From NCBI RefSeq assembly GCF_963676685.1, contig NC_092352.1, positions 1,922,001-1,986,000 on the forward strand: DNA of 64,000 nt. Reading direction: 5' to 3'. Position numbers and translations under genes: made by a program. This stretch comes from Mytilus edulis. Lineage: Eukaryota. The notes beneath the pieces were generated by a model, which searched no databases, had not been told where the DNA came from, and was given only the letters and a program-made list of their open reading frames with translations. The stretch's first letter is position 1. Every line of letters starts with the position of its first letter. Below are positions 461 through 56,136 of this stretch, piece after piece.

Positions 461-1932
461 GAGGTCCAATTATTAACTTACAAGTGCACAAGTCATCAAC
501 CAATGAACCATGTTTCTCAGCATATTTAACAAAATAGAACCAGTGAGATTGCCTGCTAAAAGTGAATTCTAATATCATTATAATTAATGACTTTACAACA
601 CAAAAATCATGTTTAATTTGCTATATATTTCGTAGCTTATGCACCAATATCAAAAACAACACTTTAGGTTGATCACTTTCGAAGAGTATTCACTGATCTT
701 CTAGTAGGTATTACCACAACTTTTGATCAGCTGACCATATTACAACAGTGTTTTAACAGTTAGTAAATAGGTGTAAAAAATCATTTAAAAATTAGTAATT
801 ACTTGTAATAACTGGGCAGTTTTAGGAATTACTTGTATTTACTAAGTGTATCGGGAATTACATGTAATTCCTAAATTTTAGTAATTACATGTAATTCCTA
901 ATTTCAACTATTTACTGTAACATATATATAGTGATACTACATTTGAAGTCAGCCAGAGTTCTTAATTTTTTGAAATCGTCTCTCAACTACGCACTGTTCT
1001 TTTAAACAAGAAATATTAACATTTAGATAAATCTTATATATTAAAAGTTACATCTCATAAAGAATATTGATCTTTAATTGTACAAATGTATCAGAGATAT
1101 AATGAGTATAAAACATCTCTGCCTTGTAAATAGACATAGGATCATATAAATCTGTATATTTGACATGGGAGTTTTAATACATAGATACAAAGGACAAACA
1201 TAGAAATTCCAATATCTACATGTAGTCATTTGAACAACTCTGACAGTCTTGAAATATTGTACATAATAGGCTTATTTCGATTATATATAGTTCATTTAAC
1301 TAAAACTGTTTTCAAAAAGAATGAACGCGTTAGACAGACAACATCTTATGATAAAAATATTGACAAATCTGACTGGATCAGATTTGAAGGCAGAACAATG
1401 GACATTTGTATACTTGTGCTTCTTGTGTGATCTTTTCTTTTTTGCCATAACCACATATAATGGAAAAGTGTCTTTGTGTGTTGGAAAGAATGACAGTAAG
1501 GAAATTAAATGTAATATGAAATTTTAGGAATGAAATAATCTTTCAAAATATGACTATATGTACATAACATGAACTATACAGATATTCACTGTTGGGTTTG
1601 CTCAAATTAAATTTCCATCTGAATCCAATGTATTTAATAAAATTTCTTCTGAGTTATCTCCCTTAGACCATTTAGAGTGAATATCCTATACAACAACAGT
1701 GAATGTCTCAGAGTGCAGATTTAGTATTTGATTTTAATGTTGGACTCTGTCTTGCTATTGTATTTTATGCTTTCATATATATGTATTTATTGTAAATTAC
1801 AAATATGTCTTAAGGTTTCACAGATCTGGAAAAACTATACAGTTTTAAAGGAAAAGAATTTTAAAAGTCCCTTGATTTCACAAATTTCATGGTATATTTA
1901 TGTATACTCACTCATCATTAGAGTTATAAATA

Positions 1933-4900
1933 TTGATAAAGCTAAATGCATGCATGAAGGGTGATATTCTTAAAATAATTTCTTATAATTGTCAAGGTCT
2001 TTATACAAAGGAGAAACGGAGAGATGTTTTGAACTATTTAAAGTCAAAGAATTTTAATATATACTGTCTTCAGGACACACATTTTACAGAACAAGATGAA
2101 TTAAACATTAAAAATCAGTGGAAGGGAGAATGCCTTTTCAATTCATTTACATCCAATCAGAGAGGTGTGGCCATCTTTTTTAATGAAAACTTTGATCTTC
2201 AAATTCACAAAGTTAAAAAAGATGAGGGGGGAAATCTTCTTGGATTGGACATTACAATTGAAGAACAAAGAATTACCTTAGTAAATATTTATGGGCCAAA
2301 TGTAGACACTCCTTGCTTTTATCAAAAGGTGGCAGACATTATTGAGGAATTTGATAACCAATCTTGTATTCTTTGTGGTGATTTTAACCTCATTCAAAGT
2401 TTTAATCTTGACACCCATAATTATGTTAATATCAACAACCCAAAGTCTAGAGAAAAAGTATTACAGCTAATGGAAGACTTTAATCTAGTTGATCCATTTA
2501 GAGAATTATACCCCAATTTGAAAAGATTTACTTGGAGGAAAAAAAAACCCTTTAAACAATCTCGTTTAGATTTTTTTCTGATTTCTGATAATATTTTTCA
2601 CTTTGTTAGCGATGTTAAAATTGATAATAGTTACAGGTCTGATCATTCACCTGTGGTCTTTTCTTTCAAGAATAATGAATTTATAAAAGGCAGAGGCCTT
2701 TTGAAGTTTAATAATTCCCTTCTTCATGATACTGACTATGTTAAAGAGATAAAAAACCTCATAAGTATAGTAAAAGAACAATATGCTGTCAAGATATATA
2801 GAGATGAAAATTTACAAAATATTGACAACTCTGAAATTGAATTTACTGTTGATGACCAGTTATTTTTAGAAACTTTACTCACAGAAATACGCGGTAAAAC
2901 TATTTCATATGCCTCTTATAAAAAAAAGGCGGGTATAAAAATTGAAAATGAAATTATTTCAAAATTAAAACAATTAGAAGAAAATGCTCTAACAGTAGAA
3001 AATCTGGAAGAGATTGATCAGAAAAAAGCAGAACTTAAAATTTATAGACAAAAGAAGGTTCAGGGACAATATGTTAGGTCAAGAAGTCAGTGGATTGAAG
3101 AAGGAGAAAAACCTACCAATTTTTTTTTAAATCTAGAGACTAGAAATTATATAAATAAGACTATTCAAAAACTGACTTTAGAAAATGGTGTTATAGTGGA
3201 AGAACAAAAAGAAATCTTAAATCAGACAAAGGTGTTTTATGAAAAACTTTATAGAAAACAAGATTGTTTGAAAAAGGTTGATTTAACATGGGACTTTTGT
3301 TATGACGAGATACCGAAGCTTAGCGAGGATGAAAAGCAGTTATTGGAGGGAAATATTATTTTTTCTGAATTAACTGCAGCATTAAAAAGGATGAAAAATA
3401 ACAAAAGTCCGGGGTCTGATGGTTTCACTGCAGAATTTTTCAAATTTTTTTGGATTGATATTGGTAAATTTGTCCTTAGATCTATAAATTTTGGATATGG
3501 GAAGGGCCAAATGTCTGTCACCCAGAGGCAGGGAGTGATTACATGTATTCCAAAAGATGGTAAACCAAAACAATTTCTTAAAAATTGGAGACCTATTACT
3601 CTACTAAATTCTACATATAAATTGGCATCAAGCTGTATAGCAGAGAGAATAAAATCTGTTTTGTCAAAATTAATAAGTTCGGATCAAACTGGTTTTGTTC
3701 CAGGTAGATATATAGGCGAAAATTGTCGTTTAATATATGATATTTTACATTTTACTGAAGAAAATAATATTCCAGGAATTCTCTTGCTGATTGATTTTGA
3801 GAAGGCATTCGATTCCATATCGTGGTCATTTCTTTATGATACATTAAGATATTTTAATTTTGGTGAATCCGTTATATCCTGGGTTAAAACCTTCTATAAC
3901 AATATAACAGCTGCGGTGACACAAAACTGTTGTTTGTCAGAATTCTTCACTATAGAGAGAGGCTGTAGACAGGGAGATCCTTTATCCCCTTATATTTTCT
4001 TGCTATGTGCAGAAATATTAGGCATTTTGGTAAGAAATAGTAGGGAGATAAAGGGTATTACTATAGATGATACAGAATTTGTACTTTCTCAATATGCGGA
4101 TGATACATCATTGATATTAGATGGCTCGCCAGAATCGCTCGATGCATCTCTTCGTGTTCTCTAATTGTATGCTGAAATCTCGGGACTTAAGATTAATATA
4201 GAAAAAACAAGTGTTATTTGGATAGGTAGCAAAAAACATAGTCAGGATCAAATTTGTGTAAAGTGGGGATTGAAATGGGGCTCCAGTACATTTAAGTTGC
4301 TTGGAATTACGTTTTCAGTCGACCTAGATAGAATGATTAATTTAAATTATAGGCCAGTTTTAGATAATATAGACAACACTTTGAAAAAATGGTCAAAACA
4401 GTATCTCACCCCCTTTGGAAAGATTACCATTTTAAAAACTTTGGTCATAGCTAAATTAAATCATCTGTTTCTATCTATCCCTAGTCCAGATGAGAATATG
4501 TTACGTAATTTAACAAATAAAATGTATGCTTTTATCTGGGATAATAAACCAGATAAGATCAAGCGAGATCTTTTATGTCAAGATTATTATAAGGGTGGTT
4601 TTAAAATGCTAAATTTAAAAGCTTTTATACAGGGACTAAAACTTACATGGGTAAGACGTCTGTATAATTCGAACTCAAAGTGGGTGAAATTAGTCTCTAT
4701 TGTGGAGCAAATAAATTTTATTGAAATAAGTTATATTGGGCCTATTAAAAGGTCAACAAATAAATTTTGGCAAGAGGTTTTTGATGCTTGGAAAACCCTT
4801 AATCAAATTAGAAAACCAAGATGTATTGATGAAATTCTATCGTATTCTTTATGGGAGGTAGAAAATTTTAAAATTGGTGGTTCAAGAGTCTACTATAAAA

Positions 4901-5736
4901 ACTGGGCAAATGCGGGAATTTGGACAGTACAAGATTTGTTAGATGACCAGGGCAAAGTTATGTCATTTCAAAATTTCCAACAATTATATCAATTTAGGCC
5001 AAATATTTTACATTATTATGGAATAGCGCACTCGCTTAATGAGTGGTTAAACACGATTAATATTGAAATAAATGAGAAAAAAATTCATGCAATACTACCT
5101 TTTAACATAAGTATCTTTTTTGAATCAAAAAAAGGTTCAAGGGAAATGTACAAAGTATTGAATGAAAAATATGTTACATTTGCTGCAAAGGAAAAATGGG
5201 AGAACCATCTTAATATGACTGGTATTAACTGGAAAAAAATACACACTTCGTGTACAAAATATAGTAAAAGCACTAAGCTTTGCTGGTTCCAATATAGAAC
5301 TATCCATAGAATTTTGGGAACTAATTCACTACTTTACAAGATGAAAATAAATAGCAGTAACATATGTACATTTTGTAAAGAAGGACCAGAGACCATAGAA
5401 CATTTATTTTGGAGCTGTCCGATGGTTGCCAGTCTCTGGCATGCACTTAACATCTGGATTTTTGAAATGACAAGTATTGAACTGCCTTTGAATATTATGA
5501 TTATTTTATTTGGTATCTACGAAAATGTTAAATTGAATTTTGTTAAAAATAAGATTATTCTACTTTCAAAATACTACATTTACAGAACAAAATTACAAGA
5601 AGTTTTGCCAAACCTAAATGCTTTAAAAAACTATTTAAAGGAACACTTGAACTTAGAAAAATACATTTCATTTAAAAACCTCTCTGTAGAGGAATATAAC
5701 AAATACTGGAGTCCCTGGGCCCCTATCATAGAATAA
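1933..5736 (+). pseudogene. L1/Tx1-clade LINE ORF2 (APE endonuclease + RT + C-terminal zinc-binding domain), broken by one in-frame TAA at 4162-4164
   Basis: APE motifs: SYNCQGL, LQDTH, NIYGPN, GDFN, SRLDFFL, SDH. RT motifs: KSPGSDG, NWRPITLLN, DFEKAFD, RGCRQGDPLSP, QYADD. Zinc motif: CTFC...ETIEHLFWSC. ORFs 1933-4164 and 4165-5736 are in the same frame and separated only by the stop codon. Confidence 0.95.
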
Positions 5737-5812
5737 ATAATAAATGTTAAAATTTGCTTGAAACACTACTTATGTATTTTGCAAGAACACATAAGATTTC
5801 AATGTTATATAT

Positions 5813-5972
5813 AGATTCTTACATTGTTAGCAGTGGATTATCGTGTTTCTCCAATCGAGATAGTTAAATTATGAAATTTTAAGTCTGAGCCTTGGCGAGG
5901 ACTTAAAATTTCATAATTTAACTATCGAGATTGGAGAAACACGATAATCCACTGCTAACAATGTAAGAATCT
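5813..5972. repeat. Long terminal hairpin of the Crypton (73-bp arms, 71/73 paired, 14-nt loop)
   Basis: Arms 5813-5885 and 5900-5972 are reverse complements except for one GA/GA dinucleotide. The loop is tgagccttggcgag. Confidence 0.95.
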
Positions 5973-6307
5973 GTTTCTCTAATGACCAAAAAACCTATTT
6001 TAGTTTCATAAAAAAATAAATTCTCCCAACCATGCCTTAAACTACGTCATCCGGTGTTACGCGCCAGCATATTTATACGCACATAAGTCTTTTGTTTAAT
6101 TTCAAGTATTATCTAAAAAAACCACAATCCAATTCAATTTGAATTCCAACATATTCATATTTAATCACAAAAAGAACATTAAAATAGTTTTTATCAATTG
6201 AACGTTGATAAGAAAAAAGAACTTTTTTCGCGTAGAATGAAGTTCACCGCTCACTGAAATAAACACGAGGAGAATGAATGAAGTTCAAAACGGCTGACCA
6301 CAGTAGT

Positions 6308-6760
6308 TTATTCATCTTGTGAACTGTCACTCTCGATAACAAATCGGCGTTTCTTCTGAGGAGGCTGAACTGATGGTGATGTATTGTTAATATTGATATT
6401 AAATGTCCCTCCATAAATAGGTGCCCCAAAGATATAGTTCATTCCTGAACGCGGTGCATCGTGACTTTGGCTTTGCCCAACCACGAGTTGTGTCTCTGTT
6501 TGATGAACTGCTTGACGTCCCATCGTAACCGTCCTCGTTGTCTGCGAAGACTGTATTTGTTGCTCATTTTCATCCTGGTTACCTAAGATGCATTGACGTC
6601 CCATCGTAACCGTCCTCGTTGTCTGTGAAGACTGTATTTGTTGTTCATTTTCAGCCTCATGATCCTGGTTACCTAAGATGCATTGGGCTATCTGTTTATG
6701 TTTCTGAGGGTTCAGTTTTGAGTAAGTGGTGATACTCTGTATGTTTTTGTGTCCAGATAT
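6308..6760 (-). CDS. Crypton tyrosine recombinase, exon 3 (GH and catalytic Y)
   Basis: Acceptor ttttttag|ATA TCT GGA CAC. It encodes ISGHKNIQSITTYSK..., a duplicated QCILGNQD...MGRQ segment, and a GAPIYGGTFNININ tail. The spliced CDS is 1222+143+453=1818 nt (605 aa) and open throughout. Confidence 0.88.
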   Translation of the reverse strand: MSGHKNIQSITTYSKLNPQKHKQIAQCILGNQDHEAENEQQIQSSQTTRTVTMGRQCILGNQDENEQQIQSSQTTRTVTMGRQAVHQTETQLVVGQSQSHDAPRSGMNYIFGAPIYGGTFNININNTSPSVQPPQKKRRFVIESDSSQDE

Positions 6761-7020
6761 CTAAAAAATCAGTAAAAAAATCATAAACTTTCTAGTATGA
6801 ACCATATGTGAATTTTTGTGAAATAGTGTGGATCTGAGGAAGAAGTAAAGGTGGACTAGAATTTAGAATTGTGAAATATTAAATAAGGGTGTCTCATTGA
6901 CAGATTGAGGGGTTCTGATCCTGGATCCAACTTACTGTTTTGTCAAATTCCTGTATCCGCTTACACTATGTATGTAACTTTGTAAGCAATTCTCATTTTT
7001 TGTAAATTCTTGTGTCCCCC

Positions 7021-7152
7021 CTAGTCCAAATAATTATGACGTCTCGTTAGGCTATTTTTTAATATTTTTTTTGGGACGCTGTACATTGATGTACGACGTC
7101 CAAAAAATTATAAAAAAATAGCCTTTCAAGACGTCATAATTATTTGGACTAG
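7021..7152. mobile_element. 132-bp palindromic MITE in Crypton intron 2
   Basis: TIR ctagtccaaataattatgacgtc / gacgtcataattatttggactag. The direct repeat tgtccccc lies at 7013-7020 and 7153-7160 (8 bp; 9/10 bp if the termini are TAG..CTA). Confidence 0.85.
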
Positions 7153-7299
7153 TGTCCCCCTAGACTTCCTAACACAGTACAGTACAATAATTTGACTAAC
7201 ATGTGTCATGCTCTCAAAGAGTTAGCAATTCAGGGTTGCACTTAGACCCTAATGAGATCCACAAATAAAAAATAAATAATCCGACAATTTTAAAAAGGA

Positions 7300-7663
7300 T
7301 TTCTTCAATTTTTGTGCTATTTTTACATTTCCTGACCGGTGTGAGAAAAAATATTTCTCCTCACTAGTGAAAAATCTGTTCTTGGCAAGTGATTGATTGA
7401 ATTTCAATGGTTCAAATTTTGCCGTTATATAGCCTTTTTGTGCTAATGCGGCGTCAGCTGTGTGGCGTAAAGCAACTAACAATGAATCAATGAATTTAAT
7501 CTTTGATAAAATTAGAGAAACAAATTCCACCGATATGTGTTTCCACTTTCAACAGTTAAATTTTTAATATTGAAAAGCTCAGCAAGCCTTGTGTTTTAAA
7601 TTGTAAAATTTAACGTTAACTGTCTCGAGTGGAGAATTTCGTAACACTCTGTGAAATCTATAT
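7300..7663 (+). mobile_element. Non-autonomous Crypton-related element, inverted relative to the autonomous copy
   Basis: The 5' part is the reverse complement of 11340-11430. It has an internal aaaattagagaaa, a hairpin with an agctcagcaagccttg loop, and ends in gaaatctata. Confidence 0.75.
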
Positions 7664-7796
7664 TTTCATATCTCCAGTTACAAAATTTTCTTATCAGATG
7701 ATTGTTCAAAATTCAATCATGACAAAAATTGAGTGGATGAAAACTGTAATTAATGTAGTCAAGTGGTGTTGTAGTAATATTTTTATGATTAATAAC

Positions 7797-7939
7797 CTGT
7801 TTGATACGATTATGTTCAATTCCCTCATCGTCAAGCTTCTGAAGCATAAACCTTCTAGCTGAATGGTTGGTTAGGCGCCTGTTTGTATTGTCATCTAGAG
7901 GTTGGTTCTCATCATTTTGATTGTGTTCTTTAATAATAC
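7797..7939 (-). CDS. Crypton tyrosine recombinase, exon 2 (HxxR motif)
   Basis: Boundaries ttgtag|GT ATT ... AAA CAG|gttatt; 143 nt, phase 1 to 0. It encodes ...RRLTNHSARRFMLQKLDDEGIEHNRIKQ and is absent from the ORF track. Confidence 0.88.
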
Positions 7940-8484
7940 CTACAAGTATATGTACAGTATTAATAATTAAAAGCAGTGATTAAAAGAACATGCTGGTTAT
8001 ACACATGTACAGTGTTTATATGGGGAAATTCAAATATGGTATCAAATTTTCTTGATTTCTTCTGAATTTCCTATTGTGACGTCATAAAAAAAGACAACCA
8101 TGATGACGTCACTTACATGTATGCCTTCAAATTGATATTTTATTGTGTGTTTTTCTATGTTGTGATGTTATACTATTCAGTTTTGTGTCAGTAAAAGGGA
8201 GAAGGTTTGGTACCATTAAAACATTTAATCCCTCTGCAAATGTTTGCACCTGTCCTAAGTCAGGAATCTGATGAACACAACAGTAGTTGTTGTTTGTTTA
8301 TGCAATTTATACATGTTGCTTGTTTCACTTGTTTTTATAAAAGACCATTGGTTTACCCGTTTGAATGAATTTACACTTTAAATTTGGGCTCTTTATAGCT
8401 TGTGTTATCCAAGGCTACATAATGAAGGCTGTACCTTGACCTGTAATGGTTTACTTTTATAAATTGTAATTGGATTGAGAGTTG

Positions 8485-8730
8485 TTTCTCTAGTTTTCGT
8501 GCTATTTTCACCTTTCTCGACCGGTGTGAGAAAAATATTTCTCGTCTCTAGAGAGAAATTTGTTCTTGTTCTCAGCAAATGATTGGTTGAATTTCAATTA
8601 TGACATCAATTTTTTTTGCTTTCTTCTGAATTTTCTATTGTGACATCAGGAAACTAGGTGAATTTAAAAATTTAACTGTTTGAGTGGAGAAATATTGTAA
8701 TACAGTCTTGATGCAGTTGTGAAATCTATA
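8485..8730 (+). mobile_element. Internally deleted non-autonomous Crypton-related element inserted in a common dispersed repeat
   Basis: It runs tttctctag...gaaatctata. Removing it restores gagagttg+tctcattggcactcat, seen uninterrupted at about 34931 (agagttgtctcattggcactcat). Confidence 0.8.
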
Positions 8731-8821
8731 TCTCATTGGCACTCATACCATATCTTCCTATGCATGTACATTGTACCAATAAAGAGCACAACTTTCAGCA
8801 AATCTCTCAAAAGGAATATCT

Positions 8822-8937
8822 CGTGTATTATATTTCTCCAGTCTTGACAGTTAAATTTTAAATATATTCAAAATCTTGGCACGCCTTGCATTTTAAATTT
8901 TAAAATTTAACTGTCTCTCGTGGAGAAATATAACACG
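8822..8937. repeat. Isolated degraded copy of the Crypton-type hairpin
   Basis: The sequence reads gtgtattatatttctccagtcttgacagttaaatttt ... aaaatttaactgtctctcgtggagaaatataacac. Confidence 0.7.
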
Positions 8938-9188
8938 TAATATGTGTCTTTGTGGCATGTACAAATGTTTTATGCTTGCGTTAAAACTAACATGTAATCT
9001 TTTTTTTTAGGTTAAAGAATAGAGTTTATTTTGGATTTTTATCAACCTTAAACAAAATTTTAAGACGGCAGGGTTGATGAATTTTCTGGATATATCGAGA
9101 ATTTTTTATAAAAAAAGGGGGGAAACATATCAACCAAAGTATTGAGTATTTGACACAGATTATTCTACATGTACATGTATTTAAACTA

Positions 9189-9260
9189 TCCTTGTTAGTA
9201 CAATGGTCAGTACACTCATCTACAGATGAGGGATCTGGGTTCGATTCCTGGACTTGGAGT
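9189..9260 (+). pseudogene. tRNA-derived (SINE-head-like) degenerate sequence
   Basis: It has an A-box-like tagtacaatggt, a stem ctcat/atgag, and a B-box ggttcgattcc. The anticodon loop is irregular. Confidence 0.4.
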
Positions 9261-9539
9261 TTACATGTAGAGTCAAAATGTGTCTATTTACTCTTGCTTA
9301 AATTTGAATAAAAATGTACAAGTAACTTAATTTGACCATTGTTGAAATTTTAATTATCAACATGTTGTTCACAGTTCTACCTTCATATTGGTAAATACTC
9401 AATGATGACTTTCATTTTTTTTTTAATTTCAAAACTAAACTGATTTATAAAAGAAACAGATTAAACAGTTATCTGTCACTGTTGACAAATAGGTTTCTCA
9501 AATCTTTCTCCAATCAATGAATTTGGGAAAACCTGCACA

Positions 9540-9930
9540 TTTCTTGAGTGGTGTGAGTAAACTATTTTTCACCACTAGTAAAATATCTGTTCTAAATCAA
9601 AATTGATTATGACGTCATCATGTTTTGTTTTTTTCAGAATTTTCATATTGTGACGTGGGGGAAAAAAGGCGACCTTGCCTGATGACATTGCATATATTAA
9701 AGGAACACAAGTTTCTAAAAATCTTTGAAAAAGAATGATACAAATCATTAAACAAACTAATTTCGACACTATAAGTTATAACTCGTGTATTACAATATTT
9801 CTCCACTCTCGACAGTTAAATTTAATTATTTAAAAAGCTCGGCAAGCCTCGCTCTTTAAATAATAAAATTTAACTGTCTCGAGTGGAGAAATATTGTAAT
9901 ACACTTGTTGCAGTGTATGAATCAATATAT
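9540..9930 (+). mobile_element. Non-autonomous Crypton-related element with a well-preserved hairpin (9785-9904) in intron 1
   Basis: The motif ggtgtgag...tttttcaccactagt is shared with the 7340 and 8522 copies. The hairpin loop is agctcggcaagcctcgct. Confidence 0.75.
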
Positions 9931-9974
9931 ACATTAATAACAAGTAAATGTACCTGTTTACAATATTTTATTAC

Positions 9975-11196
9975 CTGTATTTAAAGCCATTTTCTTCATG
10001 AATTTTCCTAATTTATTGATACCAATTCTTTGTGCCTTAAACCAAAGGGCTGACTTGTCAGGGTTGTTGTTCTCCTGAATGTAGAAGGGATCTTCAGGCT
10101 TACTATATTTTGTAGGTCTTTTTGACTTGTAAAGCTTGTATGCAGCTACAGGACATTTTGTTTGATCAGTTGTGGCCCAGGCCCTTTGAGGAATTTCTCT
10201 TGTGTTTTTCAGATTTGCTCCAGTTCTTGTTTTAGTATTTCTCTCGTTCATTTGCAAGTATTCCTGACTTTTAGAGTCTTTACATAGTTGGACATCCCCC
10301 CATGTCATCTGATAATGTTCAGTTACACCACGTAGGCCAAAATATATTGTGTTAAAAAACCAGAGAGTGTGCAATAGAGTTGTAGGATTGGACAAGCCCA
10401 GCTGCCCAGTTTTAAACATTGCTTCAATGTCATCATCAGTGAGTGTTTCAGCTCTTTTATCACCATTTCCTTTACCCATTTTTTTTAACGCTATCTGTTT
10501 TGCCGTAAGAACATCTCTGGTTTTAGCAAATTCTACACTTTTACTTAATTCATAGCCATAATCATTGCTCCTCAGTATTCTATCAAATGAACACATCATT
10601 CCACGTAGTGAGGATGGCTCATACTCTTCTCCATCAGTTTTTCTCACAGAGAAAAAGTACTGACATAAAAGACTGTTTAATTCTTCAGGTGGAATTTTAT
10701 AAATTTCTCTTTTTTCATTTTTCTGTTGTAGGAACTGTGTAAGTGTGCGCATATCACTTATATTTTTTCTGGCAGTGCCTTGATTTTCCTGATCTTTAAC
10801 AAATTGTTCTACAGTTGATTCATCAACTGGAACAAACTGTCTTGGTTTTGATGCTTTTGAACTAGGCTTTTGTGTAGGTGCTTGAGGTGGTGCTGACACA
10901 TTTACAGGAGCTTCATTTGGCGTTTTATCAACTTCATTCAACTCTGGCTCAAACAGATACAGGAGTCCATCAGGAACATGTGGTGGGGAGTCATGTTCTA
11001 ATGGGTGTGTGACTGTTCTGTCAGGCTCAGAAATAATGTCAAACCTGTATCTGGCCTCAGTTACAAGTTTACCACCTTCTAGCTGAATTTCCCACAACGG
11101 AAACCCAAAGTTGTCTGTTTTACCTTTTATAACTCCCATTTGCCCCCCTACAAGTCTGACTTTTTGTCCCCTTGTCAAGTTTTCGTTGAGCGACAT
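9975..11196 (-). CDS. Crypton tyrosine recombinase, exon 1
   Basis: DUF3504/ZMYM/KCTD1-like motifs: RKTDGEEYEPSSL, FGLRGVTEH (catalytic R), ERNTKTRTG, KCPVAAYKLYKSKRP, WFKAQRIGINKL. The exon ends at ACA G|gtaata (phase 1). Confidence 0.9.
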
Positions 11197-11430
11197 TTCT
11201 TTCTTATAATGAAAATTGCAGACGACGAGTTCTCGATAGTTTGTTTACACGTTACTAAGATGTTTATCGAAGAAGGCCGAGAATTCTTGTTAACCTTGAA
11301 AAAGTAGTTCCGACAGGTCACGAACTTTGATTATCCAATCAATTGCTGAGAACAAATTTCTCTCTAGAGACGAGAAATATTTTTCTCACACCGGTTGAGA
11401 AGTGTGAAAATAGCTCGAAAATTAGAGAAA

Positions 11431-11608
11431 AGATATTTATTGATTTTCAACCTATTATAGCACCATCATATTTATTCAATTGTTGTTTTATTATTTAATA
11501 CTTCCTTTGTGTGAAAATGTCATTCTGTATACCTTTGTTCATACATGTTGTGCTAATCTATTTGTTACAATAAAGAAAATTCATTATAAAAAACAAAAAA
11601 CAAAAGAA
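11431..11608 (+). mobile_element. Probable displaced 3' UTR and A-rich tail of the first L1, split off by the Crypton insertion
   Basis: aataaa at about 11569 is followed by an A-rich tail (aaaaaacaaaaaacaaaag). ORF2 at 5736 has no such tail before the Crypton starts at 5810. Confidence 0.55.
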
Positions 11609-11804
11609 AGAATCAAAATTATAGATAATTGAAAGATAAATATTAAATTTAAAGGAAGTTAAAAGTTTTTTGTTTGTTTTTGGTTCTTTATTTGCAGAGA
11701 TGAATTATGTAGTTCTTTCTCATGTAATAGACAATATATCATAATATGACAATTTTCTTTCTACTAATTTATGTACACATATACAATGTAAAAAAAATAT
11801 CTGA

Positions 11805-14800
11805 TCATTCATCGAAAAGAATAGCAAAAGCATTCCAACTTTTGTCAAAAATATCTACTCTTTTATTTTTAACAGCAATTATTTTTTCAGTGCTGTATAA
11901 AGATTTTAATTTACTTTGCACTGCCTGCATTGTCAAAGCGTTCTTAAAATATTTGCAGTTGAAAATATATTGTTTTATCTGCATATATATCAAATTTGCA
12001 GCATTCCCCCTAAATGATTTTGTAATATCCCCAAATAAAAAATATTTTAAGGTAAATGGAACACTTATACCATTTGACAAAAACCAGGAGTCAATTTCAT
12101 CAATGAATGTTTGAACAATCTCACAATTCCAAAATAAATGTACAATAGTTTCTACTTCTTCTTGACAAAAAATACAATTTGGGTTGTCAATGACATTAAT
12201 TTTATTCAAAAACTTATTTGTACCTAAAATATGCTGATTTATTCTATATTGTAACCACTGTAGTTTGGTATTTTTTGTGACTTTAAAAGGTAATTTGAAA
12301 ATTAATTTCCATTCATCTTCATCTACTTTTACAATTTGATCCCATTTTTTCTGACCCGTTGAAACTATTTTTAATTAATAGTGAATACATGTCTTTTGTT
12401 CCCCTTGAGCTTTTAAAAAAAATCTTGGCAAATGAAGGAATAAAAGGGGTGACTAGTTTATAATTATCAAAAACATAGCCTTTTCTTGCATTCTTTACAG
12501 CCGAAATTATGTTGTTATATTTCATAACATTTCTATCAATTTTAAATATTTCTTCTAACTGTTCCAAACTGAGAATATTTCCAGCATCTGATACAATGTC
12601 ATTAATGAAAAATATACCTTTATTCAACCAGTTTTTATAAAATACAGGTTTATTTTCTATTTTTATACAAGTATTCATCCACAATGGGCTTGACAAAAAA
12701 TATTCCCACATATTCTTTTCTTCTTTATCAACAATAATGTCCCATGCATGGAATACGTCCTGCCAAAATTTATTTTTCATCTTTACTTTAATGTTTGACA
12801 AATAACCATTTCCAAACTTAAATAATTTTTCTTGATTTATTATGGAAAATAAAACATTTTTCCATTTATTATTAGATTGAAAAAGTTTTCTAACCCATGT
12901 AGATTTGAGTGCTATGATGAAGGAATTAAGATTGATCATTTTCAATCCACCTTCACTGTAATCCTTTTGTAACAGCTCCTTCTCGACTCTATGAACAGGT
13001 GAATTCCAAATAAATGTAAAAATAAGCTCATTAATCTTTTTCACAATTTCTTGATTTGGGTTTGGCAATGTAATTATAAGGTGATTAAGGACAGGTAAAA
13101 TCAGAGTTATTACAACTGTAATTTTCCCAATTACTGTAAGATTTCTTTTTGACCATATTTTGATTAGATTTTTTATCTGCAAAACTCTCTCATTATAATT
13201 GATGTTAATAATTTTATCAAGATCTACGTCAAAATTAATACCCAATAACTTAAAAGATGTTGCACCCCAGGATAAATTTCTGTTTGGACAAAGTTTGTCA
13301 CTACAGTATCTTTTACTCCCAATCCAAACTACCTGTGTTTTAGAAAAGTTTATATTTAGCCCAGAGAGGTTTGCATACCAATCTAATTCATTTAAAGTTT
13401 GATTTAAGGACTGTTCACTTCCATCTAAAATAAGTGAAGTATCATCTGCAAACTGTGATAACTTATGTTCTATCCTAGTCACAGTTATGCCAGTAATATT
13501 TTTATTCCCCCGTATTCTAATTGCCAAAATTTCTGCACAAAGTATAAAAAGGTAGGGTGATAAGGGATCCCCTTGTCTACAGCCACGTCCTATTTGAAAA
13601 AAGTCTGAAAGATTTCCTCCCTGAATGACTGCAGATGAGATATTATTATAAAATACTTTAACCCAGTTGATAATAGATTCACCAAAATTAAAAAATTGCG
13701 ATACTGACAACAAAAAGTCCCAAGATAGAGAATCAAATGCTTTTTCAAAATCAATTAAAAGCAACCTGGAATGTTATGTTCATCTGTATATTGTAAAAGA
13801 TCATAAATCAATCTGATGTTATCCCCAATAAAACGCCCACTAATAAAGCCAGTTTGATCTAAATCAATCAGTTTGTCTAAAACTTTTTTAAATCTACTAG
13901 CAATAACCCCTGAACCAATTTTGTATACAGTATTAAGCAAGGAGATAGGTCTTGGTTTATTGTATTTTAGTAAGCATGTAATGATTCCCTGTCTTTGAGT
14001 CACTGATAAATGTCCCAAATTTGACCCATAATTTAAAGATTTAACAACAAAAGATTTCAAATCCTTCCAGAAAAACTTAAAAAAATCTGTTGAAAAACCA
14101 TCTGACCCTGGTGATTTATTATTATTCATTTTCTGTAAAGTAATGCTTGCTTCATTAGTAGTTATCTCCCCTTCTAAATTCAACTGTTCATCCACAGATA
14201 ATTTATTAAAATTTAAATCTTTCAAATCTCTTTCTAAATCACTCAGTTTACACCCATTGCCAATAGTATCCTTATTTTTGTATAAATTTTCATAAAAGTA
14301 TTTTGTCTCCTTTAAAATATCAAATTGGTTTGTAATAATTTTCCCATCATCTTTTTCGACTTTGGGAATTATTTTGCTTGTAAAATTTTTTGATTCAAGA
14401 CCGCAAAAATACTTTGTAGGTTTTTCACCTTCTTCAATCCACTGCACTCTAGAGCGTATAAATTTACCTCTAATCTTTTCTTTTCTTATACTTTCTAATT
14501 CTTGTTTTTTAATTTCTAAGCTATGTAATAAATTTTCTTCCAGTTTAGCTTCTAATATTTCAATATCACATAATAGATCTTTTTCCTTTTTATCCCTTTG
14601 TTTTTTCTTATAGCTTGAATAAGATATGGTTTTACCTCTAATTTCTAACAACAAAGTTTCAAGAAACAATTGACTATTTACTGTAAAATGGAGATCATCA
14701 TTACTAATCTTATGTATATTTTCAAAATTATAAACCAATGCACCATACTGTTTTTTAACATCTAAAATCTTATCTTTAACAATATTTATGTATTCAATAT

Positions 14801-16090
14801 CATAAAGTAATGAATTATTGAATTTCCAAAGTCCTTTACCTCGAACAAAAGGATTAAATTCAAATTCTAAAACTACCATGGAATGATCTGAACGATAACT
14901 AAGTTCAATTTTACAGTTTATTAAATTTGTCAACATACAGTCTGGAATAAGAAAAAAATCAAGACGTGCTTGTTTGAATGGTGATTTTTTTCTCCAAGTG
15001 TATCTGTTAAGATCAGGAAACAGTTCTCTGAAGGGGTCCACAAGGGACCAGTGATCTATAATTTCTAGAACTTTATCTCTGGCATTGGGATTATTAACAT
15101 GTAAATAATTACAGTAATCAATACATGGATCTAATACTAAATTAAAGTCACCACAAAGTATGTAACTTTCATTTCCAAAATCTTCAATAACATTCATAAT
15201 CTGATCATAAAAACCAGGACTGTCTACACAAAGATTAAAAAAATTTGTTTGTACTTCCCCTCACGCATTCACGATGTCCTCAATCAGAACCGATCCCCTC
15301 ACGCATGACTTAATGAAAAATGTAGTTTTGGGAATTATTAAGACGTCTAACAACACCGGACAGCGCACACGCCGCCAAAAACAACATTCATACCCACTGC
15401 TCGAAAAAAAAAACTAATTTGAACTTGTAGGTCTGTAAATAGAACCATTTCAAAATTGAAATGTCACTTTTTTAGGCAATTCCTTGTGGGACAACTGATT
15501 TTGTAGGAGTTCAACTCTACATACAACAGTAAATGATACATGTATCTCTTCGTTAAAGTATTCACCACAGCATAGCATTCTCCGAATTTCAATATTTTGA
15601 TCAGTTGAATAAGAAAATTGAGATTTAGAAATGTACATGCCTTTTGAAGCGGTGACAATTACTCCACTCAAGCACAACCGGAAAATCCTCTCACGGTTTT
15701 CATTGCAGAACCAAATGTTCTGCGTGTGTAGATTACCAGCCGTGCTACATTAGGTCCATATAATGACACAAGTGTAAGTTTCTGTTTATCTATTATAACA
15801 TCTAATGCTAAGTAATTGCCATTCAAGTCTTTTTTTTCTTTAAGCACTTTAAATTCAAAATTATTATTAAACATGATTGATACTCCTCGTGAATTTGAGG
15901 AAAAAGAAGAGAAAAAACAATCAAAACCCCACATGGATCTGACAGCATTCTCAATTTCAGTAGTAAAATGCGTATCTTGTAAGCAGTAAATATTAAAAAA
16001 TTTTGTTTTCAGTAAATTAAACACATCTTTTCTTTCTGCACTATCTCGCAAACCCTGACAATTTACTGTTAAAAGTTTCAGAGACCCCAT
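11805..16090 (-). pseudogene. ORF2 (APE + RT + zinc-binding domain) of the second L1; frameshifted and interrupted
   Basis: The pieces are 15668-16090 (TVNCQGL, LQDTH, LYGPN), 13755-15197 (GDFN, SDH, KSPGSDG), 12319-13764 (DFEKAFD, QGDPLSP, QFADD) and 11805-12209 (CIFC..ETIVHLFWNC). All are homologous to the 1933-5736 ORF. Confidence 0.92.
15227..15744. mobile_element. 518-bp non-coding insertion in the L1 endonuclease domain
   Basis: It splits LYGPNV|DSPGFY. Termini are CAC...GTG, flanked by cta/cta; an alternative reading is a 5-bp ctaca repeat with boundaries 15229-15744. Superfamily is unresolved. Confidence 0.8.
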
Positions 16091-34646: not shown

Positions 34647-35370
34647 CTGAAATAAAAAGAATCAAGGTCACATATACATGTTTACCTTTTTCATAACAAT
34701 GTATGTATGGACTCTATATCTGAAACCATAATCTAATTAATGCTACCATGCCACAGTTAATGTCCAATCATCAAATTCTTACAAGAAGTTAGGACTTTTT
34801 ATTACAAAGTTACATAAGTTCCTGGTATCTATAAAATGATGTATAATTGATGGGTTTAGTGTAACCAGAAAGAACCTTTTATTTTTATACTAGACAAACA
34901 TGTTACTTTTACACATTGTAACTTGCATGAAGAGTTGTCTCATTGGCACTCATGCCACATCTTCTTATTTCTAATGACTTCAGAATAATCTTTAATATAA
35001 TTGTAATTTATGGTTCTGTGTGCATTCTTCCTAAGTTATAAATTGACTGCTACATTGATGCATATTTGGCCATTGAGCTTCATCATTGTTTTAATTAGTG
35101 TTTAAATGGATTTTGTAGGCTTTCATGTAGCGCGCATAAAAATATTTCATCAGATCATTTTTTGAAAAGATTGCAGACTTACAACAATTGGCATTCAAAG
35201 ACATGACAGATGAACTCCATTTTAAAACTAAATAAAATTTTAAAACTTTCATTCAAGATGTTTAATTTGTCAGTGAGGTCCACTTTTATTTCTTGAACTT
35301 GGTGACCTTTTTACAGAAATCTCTTTAACCAAAAAATTGTTATTCTATTTCAATTTTCATTCTTTCTTAC

Positions 35371-37498
35371 TTTTGATTTTGGACAATAGCAGGATCTTGA
35401 ATTTCCTCTTTATTAACGGCAACAGATTTATTGGTAGGTTGGTTATTGGATGGAACTAAGTTAGGCTTGGCAAGTACAGGCACAACAAACTGATGTCCAT
35501 TATTAGTGTGTCCTGGAACCAAGTCGGGTTGCTTTACACTGTTCACTGGAGGAACATGTTGGGGCTGCACAGCATTTGGTTCTGATAAAGCAACTGCAGG
35601 TCTATTTAGGTTTGCTGATGCATTACCAGGTCTAATCAGAAAACCTCCATTTGGAACTTGACTAGGAACAGGTCTGTTAGGATTTACTGCTGCTGGCCTT
35701 TGACTAACTGCAGGCCTGAATGGAATGTCCATTGTTGGAACCTGACCAGCTACATGTCTGGTTGGATTATTCATGGTAGGGAATTGACTTCCTGCTGGTC
35801 TCTTCAGGTTAACTGTTGTTTGACCAGGTATATTCTGAGTTGTTGACGTCACAGTAGCAAGTCCAGCAGTTTGTGGCCCAGTAATGGTACTTGATGGCCT
35901 TTGAACCCCCATGAGCAGTGGATTAAATGGAGGTCTATTCATGTTTGTCATTTGGTGTACATTTGATGGAGGCCTCTGAACGCCTGCAGTTGGATTGAAC
36001 ATTTGATTAAAATGTGGTCTATTCATGTTTGTCATTTGGTGTATAGTTGATGGAGGCATTGGTACACCAGCGTTTTGGTTTAACAATGGATTAAATGGAG
36101 GTCTGTTCATATAAGGCATTTGGTGTACAGTTGATGGAGGCCTCTGTATTCTAGTGTTTGGATTAAACGATGGATTAAACGAAGGTTTGGGCAGTAGCCC
36201 TTTATTTGACTGACTATCAGCTGTATTTAATACGTTGTTTGAAACATTACTATTTAACTGTGGTCTGTTCATACTAATGTTTGATGAATTAGCTGTTATA
36301 GTAGACTGGTTTCCTATCCTCATGTTCAGAGGGTTAGATGGATTAGGATAAGACACTGCTAACGTTTGATTGGTCATTGGTACTGGTACATTTGCAGATG
36401 TCATTAATTGTGGCAGATTTCCTAATGGTGTTTGCTGAATCATGTGACCAGCACCTAGACCAGGAGGTAATATGTCTAGTCCTATTGTCTTTTCCTGTCT
36501 AGACGGACCAGCTTGTGGAATGTGTGTCGCAGGCTTCTGACTTACAGACTGAGATTTCAATTGTTGATTTTGTGTGATGTTATTAATAATATTGATTGCA
36601 GACTGAGCACTAGGTTTCACATGTTGTTTTTGAGTGATATTATTATTGCTTACAGACTGAGCACTAGGTTTCACTTGCTGTTTTTGTGTTGTATTTTTCC
36701 TGCCTAAAGACTGAGCACTAACATTAACTGTTATATTAACGTTCATATCAGATGCATGACTAACGTTTACAGTGGCTGTTACACCTCTACTTGGACTAAC
36801 CGAGGGAGTGGTAAGGAGGCTGTTCTTAGTACCTATCACACTGGACGGAGTGGTAGTTAGTATATTTGGTACTGTATTTGACCTTACTAGTAAGTCATTA
36901 CGACCTTGTATTAAAGTTTTATCACTTGCTACAACAGAACTAGGAGATGATGACTTGTTTGCCTTGTCCCTCCAGTTCGAGAAGTCTGGACTACTCATTA
37001 CCTTGTCCAGTTTACCATGGAATTGAGAAGGTTTTAGAGGTGAGTTTTTAATTGGACTGTTTAACATTGGTAAGTCATCTTCACTGTCAGTTTGGTCAAA
37101 TATTTGATGTATTAAATCACTAGAATTAGAATCTGAACTAAACTCTATTTCTCTATACATATCATCACTTGTTGATTTGACTTTCTTTGTCTCTAAAGCC
37201 AATGTCCTTTTCTCAGCTCCACTCAAATCTTTCACACTGGTACAAGCTGCTTTAAATTTGTTATCTTTTAAGATCGGTTTGTCTTTCTTTCCCTGCTTTC
37301 TCCCTGTTTTTTCTGATACAATGAGACAATCTTTGGATGGGGTGTGTCCAGTTATTTGGACATCATTGTCATTGTTATGACCTGTGATAGTTGCATCAGA
37401 TAGACTTATATTTGATGGACTTATTATATTACTTTTAGCCAGTCTGATATCATTTACAGTCTTGTCTTTAGATGTATCTCTTTCACTGTCTGTAGAAT
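35371..37498 (-). CDS. RNF216: RNF216-like, large low-complexity exon (S/P/N/Q-rich)
   Basis: Boundaries ttacag|AT TCT ... CAA AA|gtaaga; 2128 nt open, phase 1 to 2. It has internal PPSTxHQMxxMNRPxFN repeats. Confidence 0.8.
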
Positions 37499-37979
37499 CT
37501 GTAAGGTAAAAAATAAAAGTCTTCTATTACTTTTTTCTAAATTCTAGCTTAGCCTTAAATTTTCAAATAAGGATTAATGGCCTCCATCACAATATATCAT
37601 TATGATCATAGCTTTATTTAAGTCTACATGTAGATAGGAAATAAGTATTTTTGTTTACATATCAGCATATGACTTGACACAATAAGCACTAATCTTTCTT
37701 TACGAAAAACTTAATAAATATATACATGAAATAAATTCAATGAAAAATCATAAAAATAAGAAGATTTGGCGTTAGGTCTGACGGGGAGCATATAGCAGAT
37801 GCGCCCACAAAAAAAATACTCTGTTTTCTTCTATAAAATTAAATATCTGCTTCATACTGAATTTGTTGAACCATGCGCTCAATGTATCCTAGGTCTAATT
37901 GTAGTTGAATTCAATAATTATTTTTTTTTGTCTTAAGGCATACAAAGTCATTTAATTGCCACCCTTTTATGATACTTTG

Positions 37980-49917: not shown

Positions 49918-52900
49918 TCAGTCTACCAATAAAACCATCTCACTAATCGGTCTAGTATATGTAACAGCTTTTCCTTCCTTGTAAATGCGGAGGCGAGCCT
50001 TGCGTATTTTTCCATCATCGCTTTTGAAAACTTCCTCCACAATGCCTAGTGGCCACTCTCCTCGGTAAATAGATTTGTCTCTCATAAGAATTACATCACC
50101 AACTTTGATATCGTCTTTGTCAATGTGCCATTTACGTCTCTGTTGCAAACATTGTAAATAATCTGACCTCCAATGCTTCCAGAATATATCTGATAGAACT
50201 TGCACATGTTTCCATTGTGCACGATACATATCCTTGAGATTGTATGTGTCCGTTATCACAGGTAAGTAGTCTTGTTTTCCAGTTAAGAGCATTGATGGAC
50301 TTAGAATCAAAGGCATTTCCGGATCTGATGATATCTGTGCAATGGGTCTTGCGTTAATAATAGCGGTCACTTCAGCTAAGAATGTTGTTAAACTTTCATG
50401 AGTCAAACTTTTACTACTAGAAGTTAAGATAACAGCGTCTAATATTCTTCGTGTGACACCTATCATCCTTTCCCACACTCCTCCCATGTGGGAAGAGTGG
50501 GGAGGGTTAAATTTCCATACTGAACCAGATTCACATAGAAAGTTTTTAACTGTCAAATCTTCAACATTTATAGCTTCAATATTTGAATCATCTGTGGCAC
50601 CTATGAAATTTGTCCCACGGTCAGATCGATACACTTTGGCTTGTCCGCGTAATGACTGGAACCTACGAAGTGAATTTATAAAACAGGAACTGCTTAATGA
50701 TTCTATCACTTCTATATGGACTGCTCTCGTAGTCATACATGTAAATAAAATAGCCCACCTTTTACTATTTGCTGAACCTCCACGTGTCTTACGAGTTAAT
50801 ACTTGCCAAGGTCCGAAGGTATCCAAACCTACAAATGTGAACGGAGGCCCTGGTGTTAGTCTATCAGAAGGCAAGTCCGCCATTTTTTGTTCCTGGAACT
50901 TTCCTCGAAGTTTCCTGCATATTACACACTTTTGTATAAATGAAGAAATTAATCGTTTAGCTCCAATTAGCCAGTATCCTGCACTCCTTAACGCACCTTC
51001 AGTTAAATGTCTACCCTGATGTTTCACTGAATTGTGATAGCGGTCTATAAGAAGCTTACTAATGTAACTATTTTTCGGAATGATAATTGGGTTAATTTCT
51101 CCTGTCGGAAGCCAAGACTTTGCCTTTTCCAAACGTCCTCCTACACGAATCAAACCTTGTGAATCCAAAAATGGCGAAAGAGAGATTAAAGATGATTGTT
51201 TTGAAATGTTTGTGCCTCTAGCCAAACATTCTATCTCTTGCGAATATACTTCCTTCTGACATTCCTTCAAGATAAATAATTCCGCTTTTTGGTAACTATC
51301 AACTGACATGACATTTTGACAAAAATGCCAACCTTGGCACGACTTATCCTTTAAACTGAATGACTGAGCCACATGTTGCAAAAATGATATAGCTTTCACA
51401 AGCCGTCTCCAACTAGAGAATTTTTTAAAACGCCCCACTATTGGCGCAAGCGCATCTATTGACGTTTTCGATGCACTTATCTCTTTTCTAATCTCTTTAT
51501 CATTATCTGGACTAACTAACGGATATAATATTTTGACATCACATTGAGCTTCTTCGTCAGAGTTCTTCATCCACTTCGGCCCAAGAAGCCATGGATTGTT
51601 TTCCATATCAACAGATATTGAGTAACGTGTACCGCAATCTGATGGGTTTAAATGTGTTGGGACAAACTGCCACTGATTTGATGACGATACACTCAGAATG
51701 CGTTCAATTCTGTTTGACACGTAGGTGTGAAAACGTCGGGTCTGATTAGTGATATATCCTAACACAATTTTGCTATCAGAATAATACTTGATAGAGTCCA
51801 ACGGAACATCTAAATTTTCAGATATTATTTTTCCAATTTCGGTTGCCAAGACAGCCCCACATAACTCTAATCTTGGTATCGTGTTTCCGCTAAGAGGTGC
51901 TAGTTTCGATTTTCCCATAATAAATCCTACGGTACTGGTCCCATATGTGTCGATAGCTCTTAAATATGCCGAAGCCGCAACTGCCTTCTCTGAAGCGTCT
52001 GAAAATACATGTACTTCTAAGTTGTCCATAACACTGATTGACATAGGTATATACATACGTGGTATACTAAGTTCTCGAAGTGACAAAACAGAGATCCTCC
52101 ATTCATTCCATTTCTCTTGAAAACTTTGTGATAAACATTCATCCCAATCAGTACCCGGTGGGGATGCATCTCGCAACAAAATCTTTCCGCTAATTGTGAG
52201 TGGTGACAAGAATCCAATCGGATCAAAAATACTATTCAATGACGAAAGAATACCTCTACGGGTGCAGGGTTTATCATCTTGTAATGGGGTAAATATAAAG
52301 CTATCGGTGTTTAAGTCCCAAGCGAGGCCAAGGCTGTGTTGTACCGGAAAATAGTCTTCACACAAGTTTAAATTCTTGAGATCCTTTCCAATATCATCGG
52401 CAGGGAAAGCCTTCATTACGTCGCTACTATTTGATGTAATCTTGTGTAACCTAATGTTACCTTCTGTTTTTAGCGCCATCTGTGTTCTTGTTATAAGATC
52501 AATTACTTGTTCACTTTCAGGCAAGGAAATGAGCCCATCGTCTACGTAAAAATCCCTGTTAACGAAAGTCTTAACATCTGAGCCGAACGTTTCATTAGAG
52601 TTTTCAACTGTCTTACGTAATCCGTACGTTGCCACTGCAGGAGAAGCGCTATTGCCAAAAACATTGACACACATCCGATGTTCTATAAGCGGATTATCTG
52701 GGTTATTGTCCTTGTACCAAAAGAACCTCAAAAAGTTTCTATCTTCTTCTCTCACGTAGAATTGATAAAACATTTGTTCTATATCAGCAGTGGCCGCAAA
52801 CTGGTCACTGCGAAAACGCAACAAAATACCAAGTAGGTTGTTAGTGAGATCTGGTCCTGACATCATAACGCTATTGAGAGATACTCCTTCGAAAGATGCT

Positions 52901-56066: not shown

Positions 56067-56136
56067 TTCATAAAATTGTTTGTAGGAACTACTGCATGTT
56101 ATTCTGTATCGAACTGTGTCTTTGCAATCTTTTTAC

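Follow-up and report, generated by a model that had tools for sequence, protein, structure and literature searches.

A young, spliced CryptonA transposon of the mussel Mytilus edulis and the conserved architecture of its ends

The locus, its recombinase gene and its copies

The stretch of Mytilus edulis DNA studied here (the window) is 64,000 nucleotides (nt) long, positions 1,922,001 to 1,986,000 of contig NC_092352.1 in assembly GCF_963676685.1; on its minus strand, at window positions 5809..11430, lies a 5,622-nt CryptonA-type DNA transposon that carries a spliced tyrosine recombinase gene. The initial annotation had proposed that an intact three-exon recombinase of 605 amino acids (aa), with GT-AG splicing, was hidden here from the open reading frame (ORF) track. 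The translation came out as claimed: joining 11196-9975, 7939-7797 and 6760-6308 on the minus strand gives 1818 nt encoding 605 aa with a single, terminal stop, both introns are GT-AG, and the named motifs are present, with first residues at 286 (FGLRG), 432 (NHSARR), 457 (SGHK) and 466 (TTYS). The ORF track did miss the gene, but it had already been annotated as database model P0110 ('KIAA1958 homolog'), which shows 0 differences from our 605 aa; near-identical models of 586-605 aa are in databases for M. edulis and M. galloprovincialis. The ORF list holds no other frame of at least 100 aa within 5809-11430.

The catalytic set (R289, H433, R436, H459, Y468) is spread over the three exons. Exon 1 (9975..11196, minus strand) encodes a predicted N-terminal small beta-barrel, the core-binding domain and the first part of the catalytic domain, with R289 at 10330-10332; exon 2 (7797..7939, minus strand) encodes the HxxR pair H433 and R436, has splice joints in RNA contigs on both sides, and is also found in a sister family, G; exon 3 (6308..6760, minus strand) encodes H459, the catalytic Y468 (6722-6724) and a low-confidence tail that is predicted to be disordered. 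In an alignment of 44 relatives, R289 is retained in all 44, R436 and H459 in 43 each, Y468 in 42 and H433 in 38. The suggested profile check gave a clear result, exon 1 matching the Pfam DUF3504 above its cut-off (E 7.9e-29) and the QRICH1 domain below cut-off; Pfam found no GCR1_C or other C-terminal domain, reverse transcriptase, zinc finger or BTB domain in any of the three exons. The disordered tail contains an in-frame duplication of about 27 codons (6512-6685) that is not in an 85% identical relative (L037).

An AlphaFold model of the protein, with a mean predicted local distance difference test score (pLDDT) of 73.9, was compared with known structures by Foldseek and pairwise structure comparison. 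The best matches were QRICH1 (Z 16.9), Cre (Z 16.6; root-mean-square deviation (rmsd) 4.0, 307 aligned), XerA (Z 16.1), XerH (Z 14.5) and the integron integrase IntI (2a3v; Z 13.9, rmsd 4.4, 268 aligned), and the predicted fold is that of a complete Cre-like recombinase. Where the window protein keeps the catalytic R, QRICH1 shows FLLKT. Residues 3-57 (11026-11190) form a small beta-barrel predicted with a pLDDT of about 92, Tudor/KOW/SH3-like with a best Z of 7.6 against a caution line of 8; the barrel favours the first ATG over the 586-aa database models, which start at Met20, and the barrel could be a chromatin-reading module.

RNA evidence came from four runs (X15, X16, X17 and X24, the last as raw reads of which 6% were read). 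The proposed check for splice junctions found both joints in RNA contigs: intron 2 is spliced out in contigs of X15 and X17 (sides of 145 and 141 nt), and a single X15 contig has intron 1 removed, with one side of just 25 nt. Neither joint was found in X16 or in the 6% of X24, where exon cover was almost nil. One RNA contig spans 9972-11378 without gaps and with one difference, and at 10967 RNA contigs carry the family-majority base, not the private base of the window copy; we assign the transcripts to the family, not to the window copy itself.

The genome DNA search scored the best 40 of 11,966 candidates, so copy numbers are lower bounds. We found at least five further chromosomal copies at about 99% identity (C6, C8, C10 and two on C11), and the same search returned one 85% relative as well as two unplaced contigs in which the C11 copies recur. 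The six dispersed copies differ by 0.35-0.60%; their ends are sharp and shared while their flanks are unlike, the homology of the other five stopping at the boundaries given above, where the terminal T either is common to element and target or comes from the target.

The element begins 73 nt past the ORF2 stop of a plus-strand L1/Tx1-like long interspersed nuclear element (LINE). The LINE occupies 1930..5808, with ORF2 (endonuclease, reverse transcriptase and zf-RVT, with one in-frame stop) and the start of the 3' untranslated region (UTR), and resumes on the plus strand at 11431..11612 with the remainder of the 3' UTR, an AATAAA and an A-rich tail; in empty copies this remainder is contiguous with 5808. 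Over 5500-5809 the LINE is 97-98% identical to 12 of 12 other copies, and 11 of those 12 have the empty, joined site with a single T replacing the element, as does one X6 contig. The empty copies thus bear out the 3' UTR position proposed initially, whereas 'nearly intact' needs qualifying for this LINE: ORF2 has its in-frame stop, and no upstream ORF of at least 100 aa lies in the window. Comparison with the empty copies shows one shared base and no target duplication at the insertion. Four DNA or unlabelled runs all contain the family, intron inserts included, and among them the empty LINE site is seen; this site occurs in many LINE copies, so the matches listed permit no presence/absence call for the window insertion. 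The element has no terminal inverted or direct repeats, the inverted repeats found being internal. A classical structure of terminal inverted repeats (TIRs) with target duplication was considered and rejected, flank-to-flank repeats of at least 4 nt being found in at most 1 of 27 rows.

The window copy has the sole open frame of the six. The other five all have frame indels (some one-base indels fall in homopolymers, where assembly errors are possible), and four also carry nonsense changes. Coding changes among the copies comprise 4 synonymous, 19 missense and 4 nonsense (neutral expectation 0.21 synonymous), and variable sites make up 1.5% of exons versus 1.2% of introns. The suggested copy-number and dN/dS checks therefore gave at least six loci and, among the six copies, no sign of selection. 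From the five broken copies, the mix of coding changes, and an exon variability that is not below that of the introns, we conclude that the exons are unprotected after insertion and that decay is neutral.

The introns had been said to have collected several MITEs (miniature inverted-repeat transposable elements). One insert is a true TIR MITE (7021..7152 in intron 2, with 51-nt arms of 90% and an 8-bp target duplication); the four others are short Crypton derivatives or fragments, all on the plus strand. One, in intron 2 (7300..7663), has both ends present; the three in intron 1 are an internally deleted copy (8485..8731) that sits in a very high-copy repeat whose empty form is seen in reads and contigs, a further decayed one of which the palindrome remains (8810..8951), and a decayed one (9536..9928) that is 76-77% like free 420-nt elements. 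The repeat around 8485..8731 (8180-8484 and 8732-8761) is short and abundantly transcribed. The non-MITE inserts carry the two end types of their host element and match free elements of 366-606 nt genome-wide; one right-end pattern has 604 exact genome matches versus 25 for a control pattern. These inserts are non-autonomous Cryptons lying nested, in antisense, inside the introns.

All copies share the intron inserts, which are found also in contigs of four other runs; the inserts are thus older than the window insertion and cannot date it. The argument that intact exons amid intron inserts indicate mobility therefore fails, since the inserts predate the insertion, the exons are unprotected and five of six copies are broken. 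The conclusion drawn from it stands on other grounds: six dispersed copies 0.35-0.60% apart, sharp ends, empty sites and a retained catalytic R mark a recently mobile element and not a gene of the ZMYM/KCTD1/QRICH1 type. We conclude that the locus holds a young, spliced CryptonA DNA transposon with multiple copies, which forms a new family within a known superfamily and whose gene is already modelled in databases, and that 'KIAA1958 homolog' is the wrong name for a transposon recombinase. For annotation, this means that Crypton derivatives account for many bivalve 'MITEs', and that gene models such as this one, named 'KIAA1958/QRICH1-like', are transposon genes.

Elsewhere in the window we noted a second L1/Tx1-like LINE (11620-15260, minus strand), frameshifted and tail-to-tail with the host LINE; a 718-aa open frame (35367-37523) with no Pfam match that contains 84-nt and 54-nt tandem repeats; frames of a Pao/BEL-type long terminal repeat retroelement (49918-56132; Peptidase_A17, DUF5641, DUF1759); and a 621-aa LINE ORF1-like frame (61581-63446) with coiled-coil and weak GDSL-esterase matches below cut-off.

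End architecture, targets and joints

The left end of the element is marked by a 10-nt core (11421..11430, minus strand) common to autonomous and short elements. An exact, inverted 10-nt copy of this core lies near the far end (5974..5983, minus strand), one base from the arm of a 160-nt terminal palindrome (5813..5972; arms 5813-5885 and 5900-5972, 97% complementary). The final bases of the element are a 7-nt right spacer (5809..5815, minus strand) that the copies and the short relatives picked by left end all share. Folding of the joined ends gives, in one strand, a single stem over the joint, interrupted by a 3-against-1 bubble; this was so for all four elements folded.

We examined the generality of this arrangement in copies of more distant recombinase matches, with ends defined by flank comparison, at 31 loci of seven mussel families (A, G, B, C, D, E and F), 3 of them without an end. 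The inverted copy adjoins the palindrome, with a joint 2 nt longer than the copy, in 26 of the 28 two-ended copies and across all seven families; of the two exceptions, one has its palindrome deleted and the other is a left-end variant with a spurious script match. Among the seven families there are six end types, unrelated in sequence, and their recombinases match the window protein at 23-60% identity. Every recombinase family comes with ends of its own, and the compact families of 2.1-2.9 kb have one long recombinase frame each; in families C and E the gene is antisense to the end architecture. A further family, H (L042, L043, L141), gave no definable ends. Families B-F (L122-L137, L044-L047, L138-L140) add five young recombinase families, whose members are mostly 91-99% identical to one another. 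The sister-family G element L036 (C4, 86.92 Mb) has an exon 1 that is 60% identical, both introns at the same positions and intact motifs, and its insertion point is precisely the T in the inverted copy carried by a short antisense Crypton.

The target preference is A-N6-T-N-T. Numbering the shared T as 0, a position fixed by script in both logos, we found A at -7 and T at +2 in 22 of 27 rows each of a first target set (one row being spurious), and in a second set A at -7 in 17 of 20 and T at +2 in 30 of 30 (background 0.35). Positions +3 to +6 tend towards the left-end sequence, and in the second set T at +4 (13 of 20) and C at +5 (12 of 20) are like the left end. The 7 nt before the right crossover are constant per family and the left flank varies by site, which holds as well for copies chosen by protein or by left end. 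The two spacers, left and right, differ and have one base in common. The first base of the left end is not always T (for example in three two-ended rows of the second set), a weak hint that it may be target-derived, with the cut after it.

Natural joints of right end to left core were found 24 times as exact matches, versus 0 for a control pattern: 17 head-to-tail, 5 within an inverted copy and 2 other, with two duplicate pairs among them. The head-to-tail short-Crypton joints at L144-L167 are often between different families and resemble small cassette arrays.

Proposed mechanism and its rivals

With little more than even confidence, we propose that the 605-aa recombinase moves the element, and shorter derivatives with like ends, by recombining one folded strand with a duplex target. 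In the joined ends, the inverted copy and the palindrome would pair over the joint to give two paired arms with a small asymmetric bubble, a recombinase core site made of one strand. In the integrated state the downstream flank would take the place of the left end, and the resemblance of targets to that end would be explained in this way. A single exchange between one pair of strands would take place at the right border of the 7-nt spacer, the strand used being probably the one antisense to the gene, and replication would resolve the junction. The outcome would be an insertion with no target duplication, its right spacer from the element and its left spacer from the target, and the donor probably kept. 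Since introns are kept in all copies, the intermediate should be DNA and not sense RNA. Exchange of one strand would account together for the constant right spacer, the one-base homology, the missing duplication, the left-end mimicry of targets and the head-to-tail arrays.

The textbook Crypton route, in which a double-stranded circle is excised and integrates by two-strand exchange, is the published model (PMC3212892 and PMC13565253, as far as their available text goes), and we consider it unlikely but serious as an explanation of the data here. It would treat the inverted copy and palindrome as accessory binding sites, regulatory sites or an origin of circle replication, with biased repair keeping the right spacer. 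Cre and Xer are among the best structural matches, and the target shows a rough symmetry around 7-8 nt that ordinary recombinase sites also have. If two strands were exchanged between unlike spacers, as in the Tn916 type, the right spacer should often be replaced. In copies picked by protein or by left end we did not see it replaced, and the spacers have one base in common, which favours one-strand over two-strand exchange. Nor does the circle route explain why a long palindrome should stand in exact register with a far-end copy at a fixed 2-nt offset, or why this arrangement recurs among unrelated end types.

A second alternative is that the ends are of Helentron type (Helitron group 2) and are mobilised in trans by an HUH Rep-helicase, the recombinase being cargo. 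Elements of the Helentron type carry inverted repeats that are short and asymmetric, along with hairpins and a 5' T, and they insert beside T (PMC8969392, in its available text), and the ends described here are similar. We nevertheless judge this improbable: each recombinase family has its own ends, the compact families consist of one long recombinase frame, catalytic residues are kept across the 44 relatives, and the base preference at 7 nt upstream of where insertion occurs suggests that the site has two arms. No Rep-helicase was found in the element by ORF list or Pfam, the genome itself not having been searched for Helentron helicases. Last, a domesticated, host-serving DUF3504 gene (KIAA1958/QRICH1-like) copied passively would suit the introns, the transcription and splicing, and the full-length models in several Mytilus species, but is very improbable given sharp ends with unrelated flanks, empty sites, neutral decay and five broken copies out of six.

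Several points weigh against one-strand recombination itself. Every step of the mechanism is read from sequence. No circle joint was found among the matches listed from the four DNA or unlabelled runs. The recombinase is no closer to the integron integrase than to Cre, and since it is not specially IntI-like, any likeness to integrons would be convergent. Palindromes fold whatever their role, and in duplex form the joined ends have a 4-bp inverted repeat flanking 7 nt, which would allow a conventional site. Right-end positions in the 28-copy test were placed by eye after the pattern was known, making the 2-nt excess partly circular by one base; it is seen directly only in natural joints (L122 and the right-end/left-core joints). 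The second target set was picked by right end and includes one or more duplicate pairs. The inverted copy is missing from the nested element at 8485-8731, which may have lost it after insertion.

The evidence from outside mussels comes from 80 metagenome loci of related recombinases, with 26 eligible palindromes. A first, cruder test was null (10 of 26 palindromes versus 8 of 26 controls); a second, scoring the longer match, found an inverted copy at 11 of 26 palindromes versus 2 of 78 control windows, but was devised after the first, on loci that are related and of which one was counted twice. Several metagenome rows show the 3-against-1 offset by eye. Eight metagenome elements (L200, L204, L210, L214, L216, L224, L234 and L273), probably from corals judging by the likeness of their proteins, have terminal bases nearly as in the mussel family and mostly T at +2 in the right flank.

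More broadly, animal CryptonA elements may be self-mobilising units like integron cassettes, with a hairpin single strand, loose targets, replicative copying, head-to-tail arrays and an architecture kept from mussels to other marine animals; we hold this generalisation to be possible, if on the doubtful side of even.

Comparison with known systems

CryptonA elements are known from animals including molluscs, with non-autonomous derivatives and, at least in the available text, no terminal repeats found (Kojima & Jurka 2011, PMC3212892); polymorphic Crypton-A insertions are described in oyster (bioRxiv 10.64898/2026.02.10.705023, available in part); and for salmon Cryptons and Eulor5/6 the available text notes terminal similarity and does not describe the structure (PMC5753468). 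Our element is like these in its single DUF3504-type tyrosine recombinase with R-H-R-Y intact, in lacking GCR1_C, TIRs and target duplication, in its abundant non-autonomous derivatives and in its molluscan occurrence. It differs in that the window element has two spliced introns carrying nested elements, and in that a terminal palindrome, a far-end inverted copy, a target consensus and head-to-tail joints are defined here, where PMC3212892 in its available text follows the circular double-stranded model. According to the available text of a 2026 review, Crypton transposition has never been shown experimentally and a double-stranded circle is assumed (PMC13565253). We found no description of this end architecture in a literature search that left Repbase entries and a 2019 Crypton review outside its scope. 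Repbase notes reportedly mention subterminal repeats in oyster Cryptons. The conserved folded-end architecture departs from the published picture of animal Cryptons, and it makes the mechanism testable.

Glomhoppers, the fungal CryptonA elements, likewise encode DUF3504 with catalytic residues, often have introns and lie in nested repeat regions, but their ends and repeats could not be defined and their intron positions varied, as far as the available text of PMC13465315 goes. The mussel ends, in contrast, are exact, and both intron positions are common to a 60% identical family.

DIRS retrotransposons use an internal region near the 3' end that is complementary to the joined ends. Our element resembles them in having an internal sequence complementary to its joined ends and in integrating by a tyrosine recombinase (for DIRS, see the available text of PMC13465315), but it is without reverse transcriptase and retains introns. 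Between its joint and the internal copy there is a difference of 2 nt, which means that the joint was not templated by the copy; a DIRS-like template model was rejected on this ground, the natural joints retaining two extra bases that are absent from the copy.

The domesticated genes QRICH1, ZMYM2-4, KCTD1 and KIAA1958 have DUF3504 and QRICH1 domains in common with the window protein, and QRICH1 is its top match in sequence and structure. The window element differs in having its catalytic residues intact, and in being multi-copy and mobile, with no zinc finger or BTB domain by Pfam; the single copy, lost catalytic residues and purifying selection of a domesticated gene are not what we found.

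The closest parallel in architecture is the integron cassette. In the attC palindrome, as described in the available text of PMC2727003 and PMC8946536, an inverse core pairs with the core beyond the crossover, an asymmetric spacer stays unpaired, the folded strand is recombined and replication resolves the product. Cassettes and our element have in common a tyrosine recombinase, a palindromic site at the unit's 3' end, a crossover with minimal homology and head-to-tail arrays. By analogy, and in architecture only, the inverse core within our unit would pair across the crossover with an asymmetric spacer unpaired. The differences are also plain: the window unit is eukaryotic and encodes its own recombinase, with that gene inside the mobile unit and no sedentary intI-attI-Pc platform, attI site or cassette promoter; its stem of about 70 bp is nearly perfect; and its protein belongs to DUF3504. 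The locus offers an open-frame, spliced recombinase of a very young family with exact ends, natural mini-elements of 400 nt, a target consensus and a pairing prediction. If animal CryptonA elements do behave like integron cassettes, this would give the ancestral activity of the domain in human ZMYM, QRICH1 and KCTD1; and if recombination does proceed through a single strand, integrons would have a eukaryotic counterpart in this element, which would also be an integration system that is compact, scarless and tolerant of introns.

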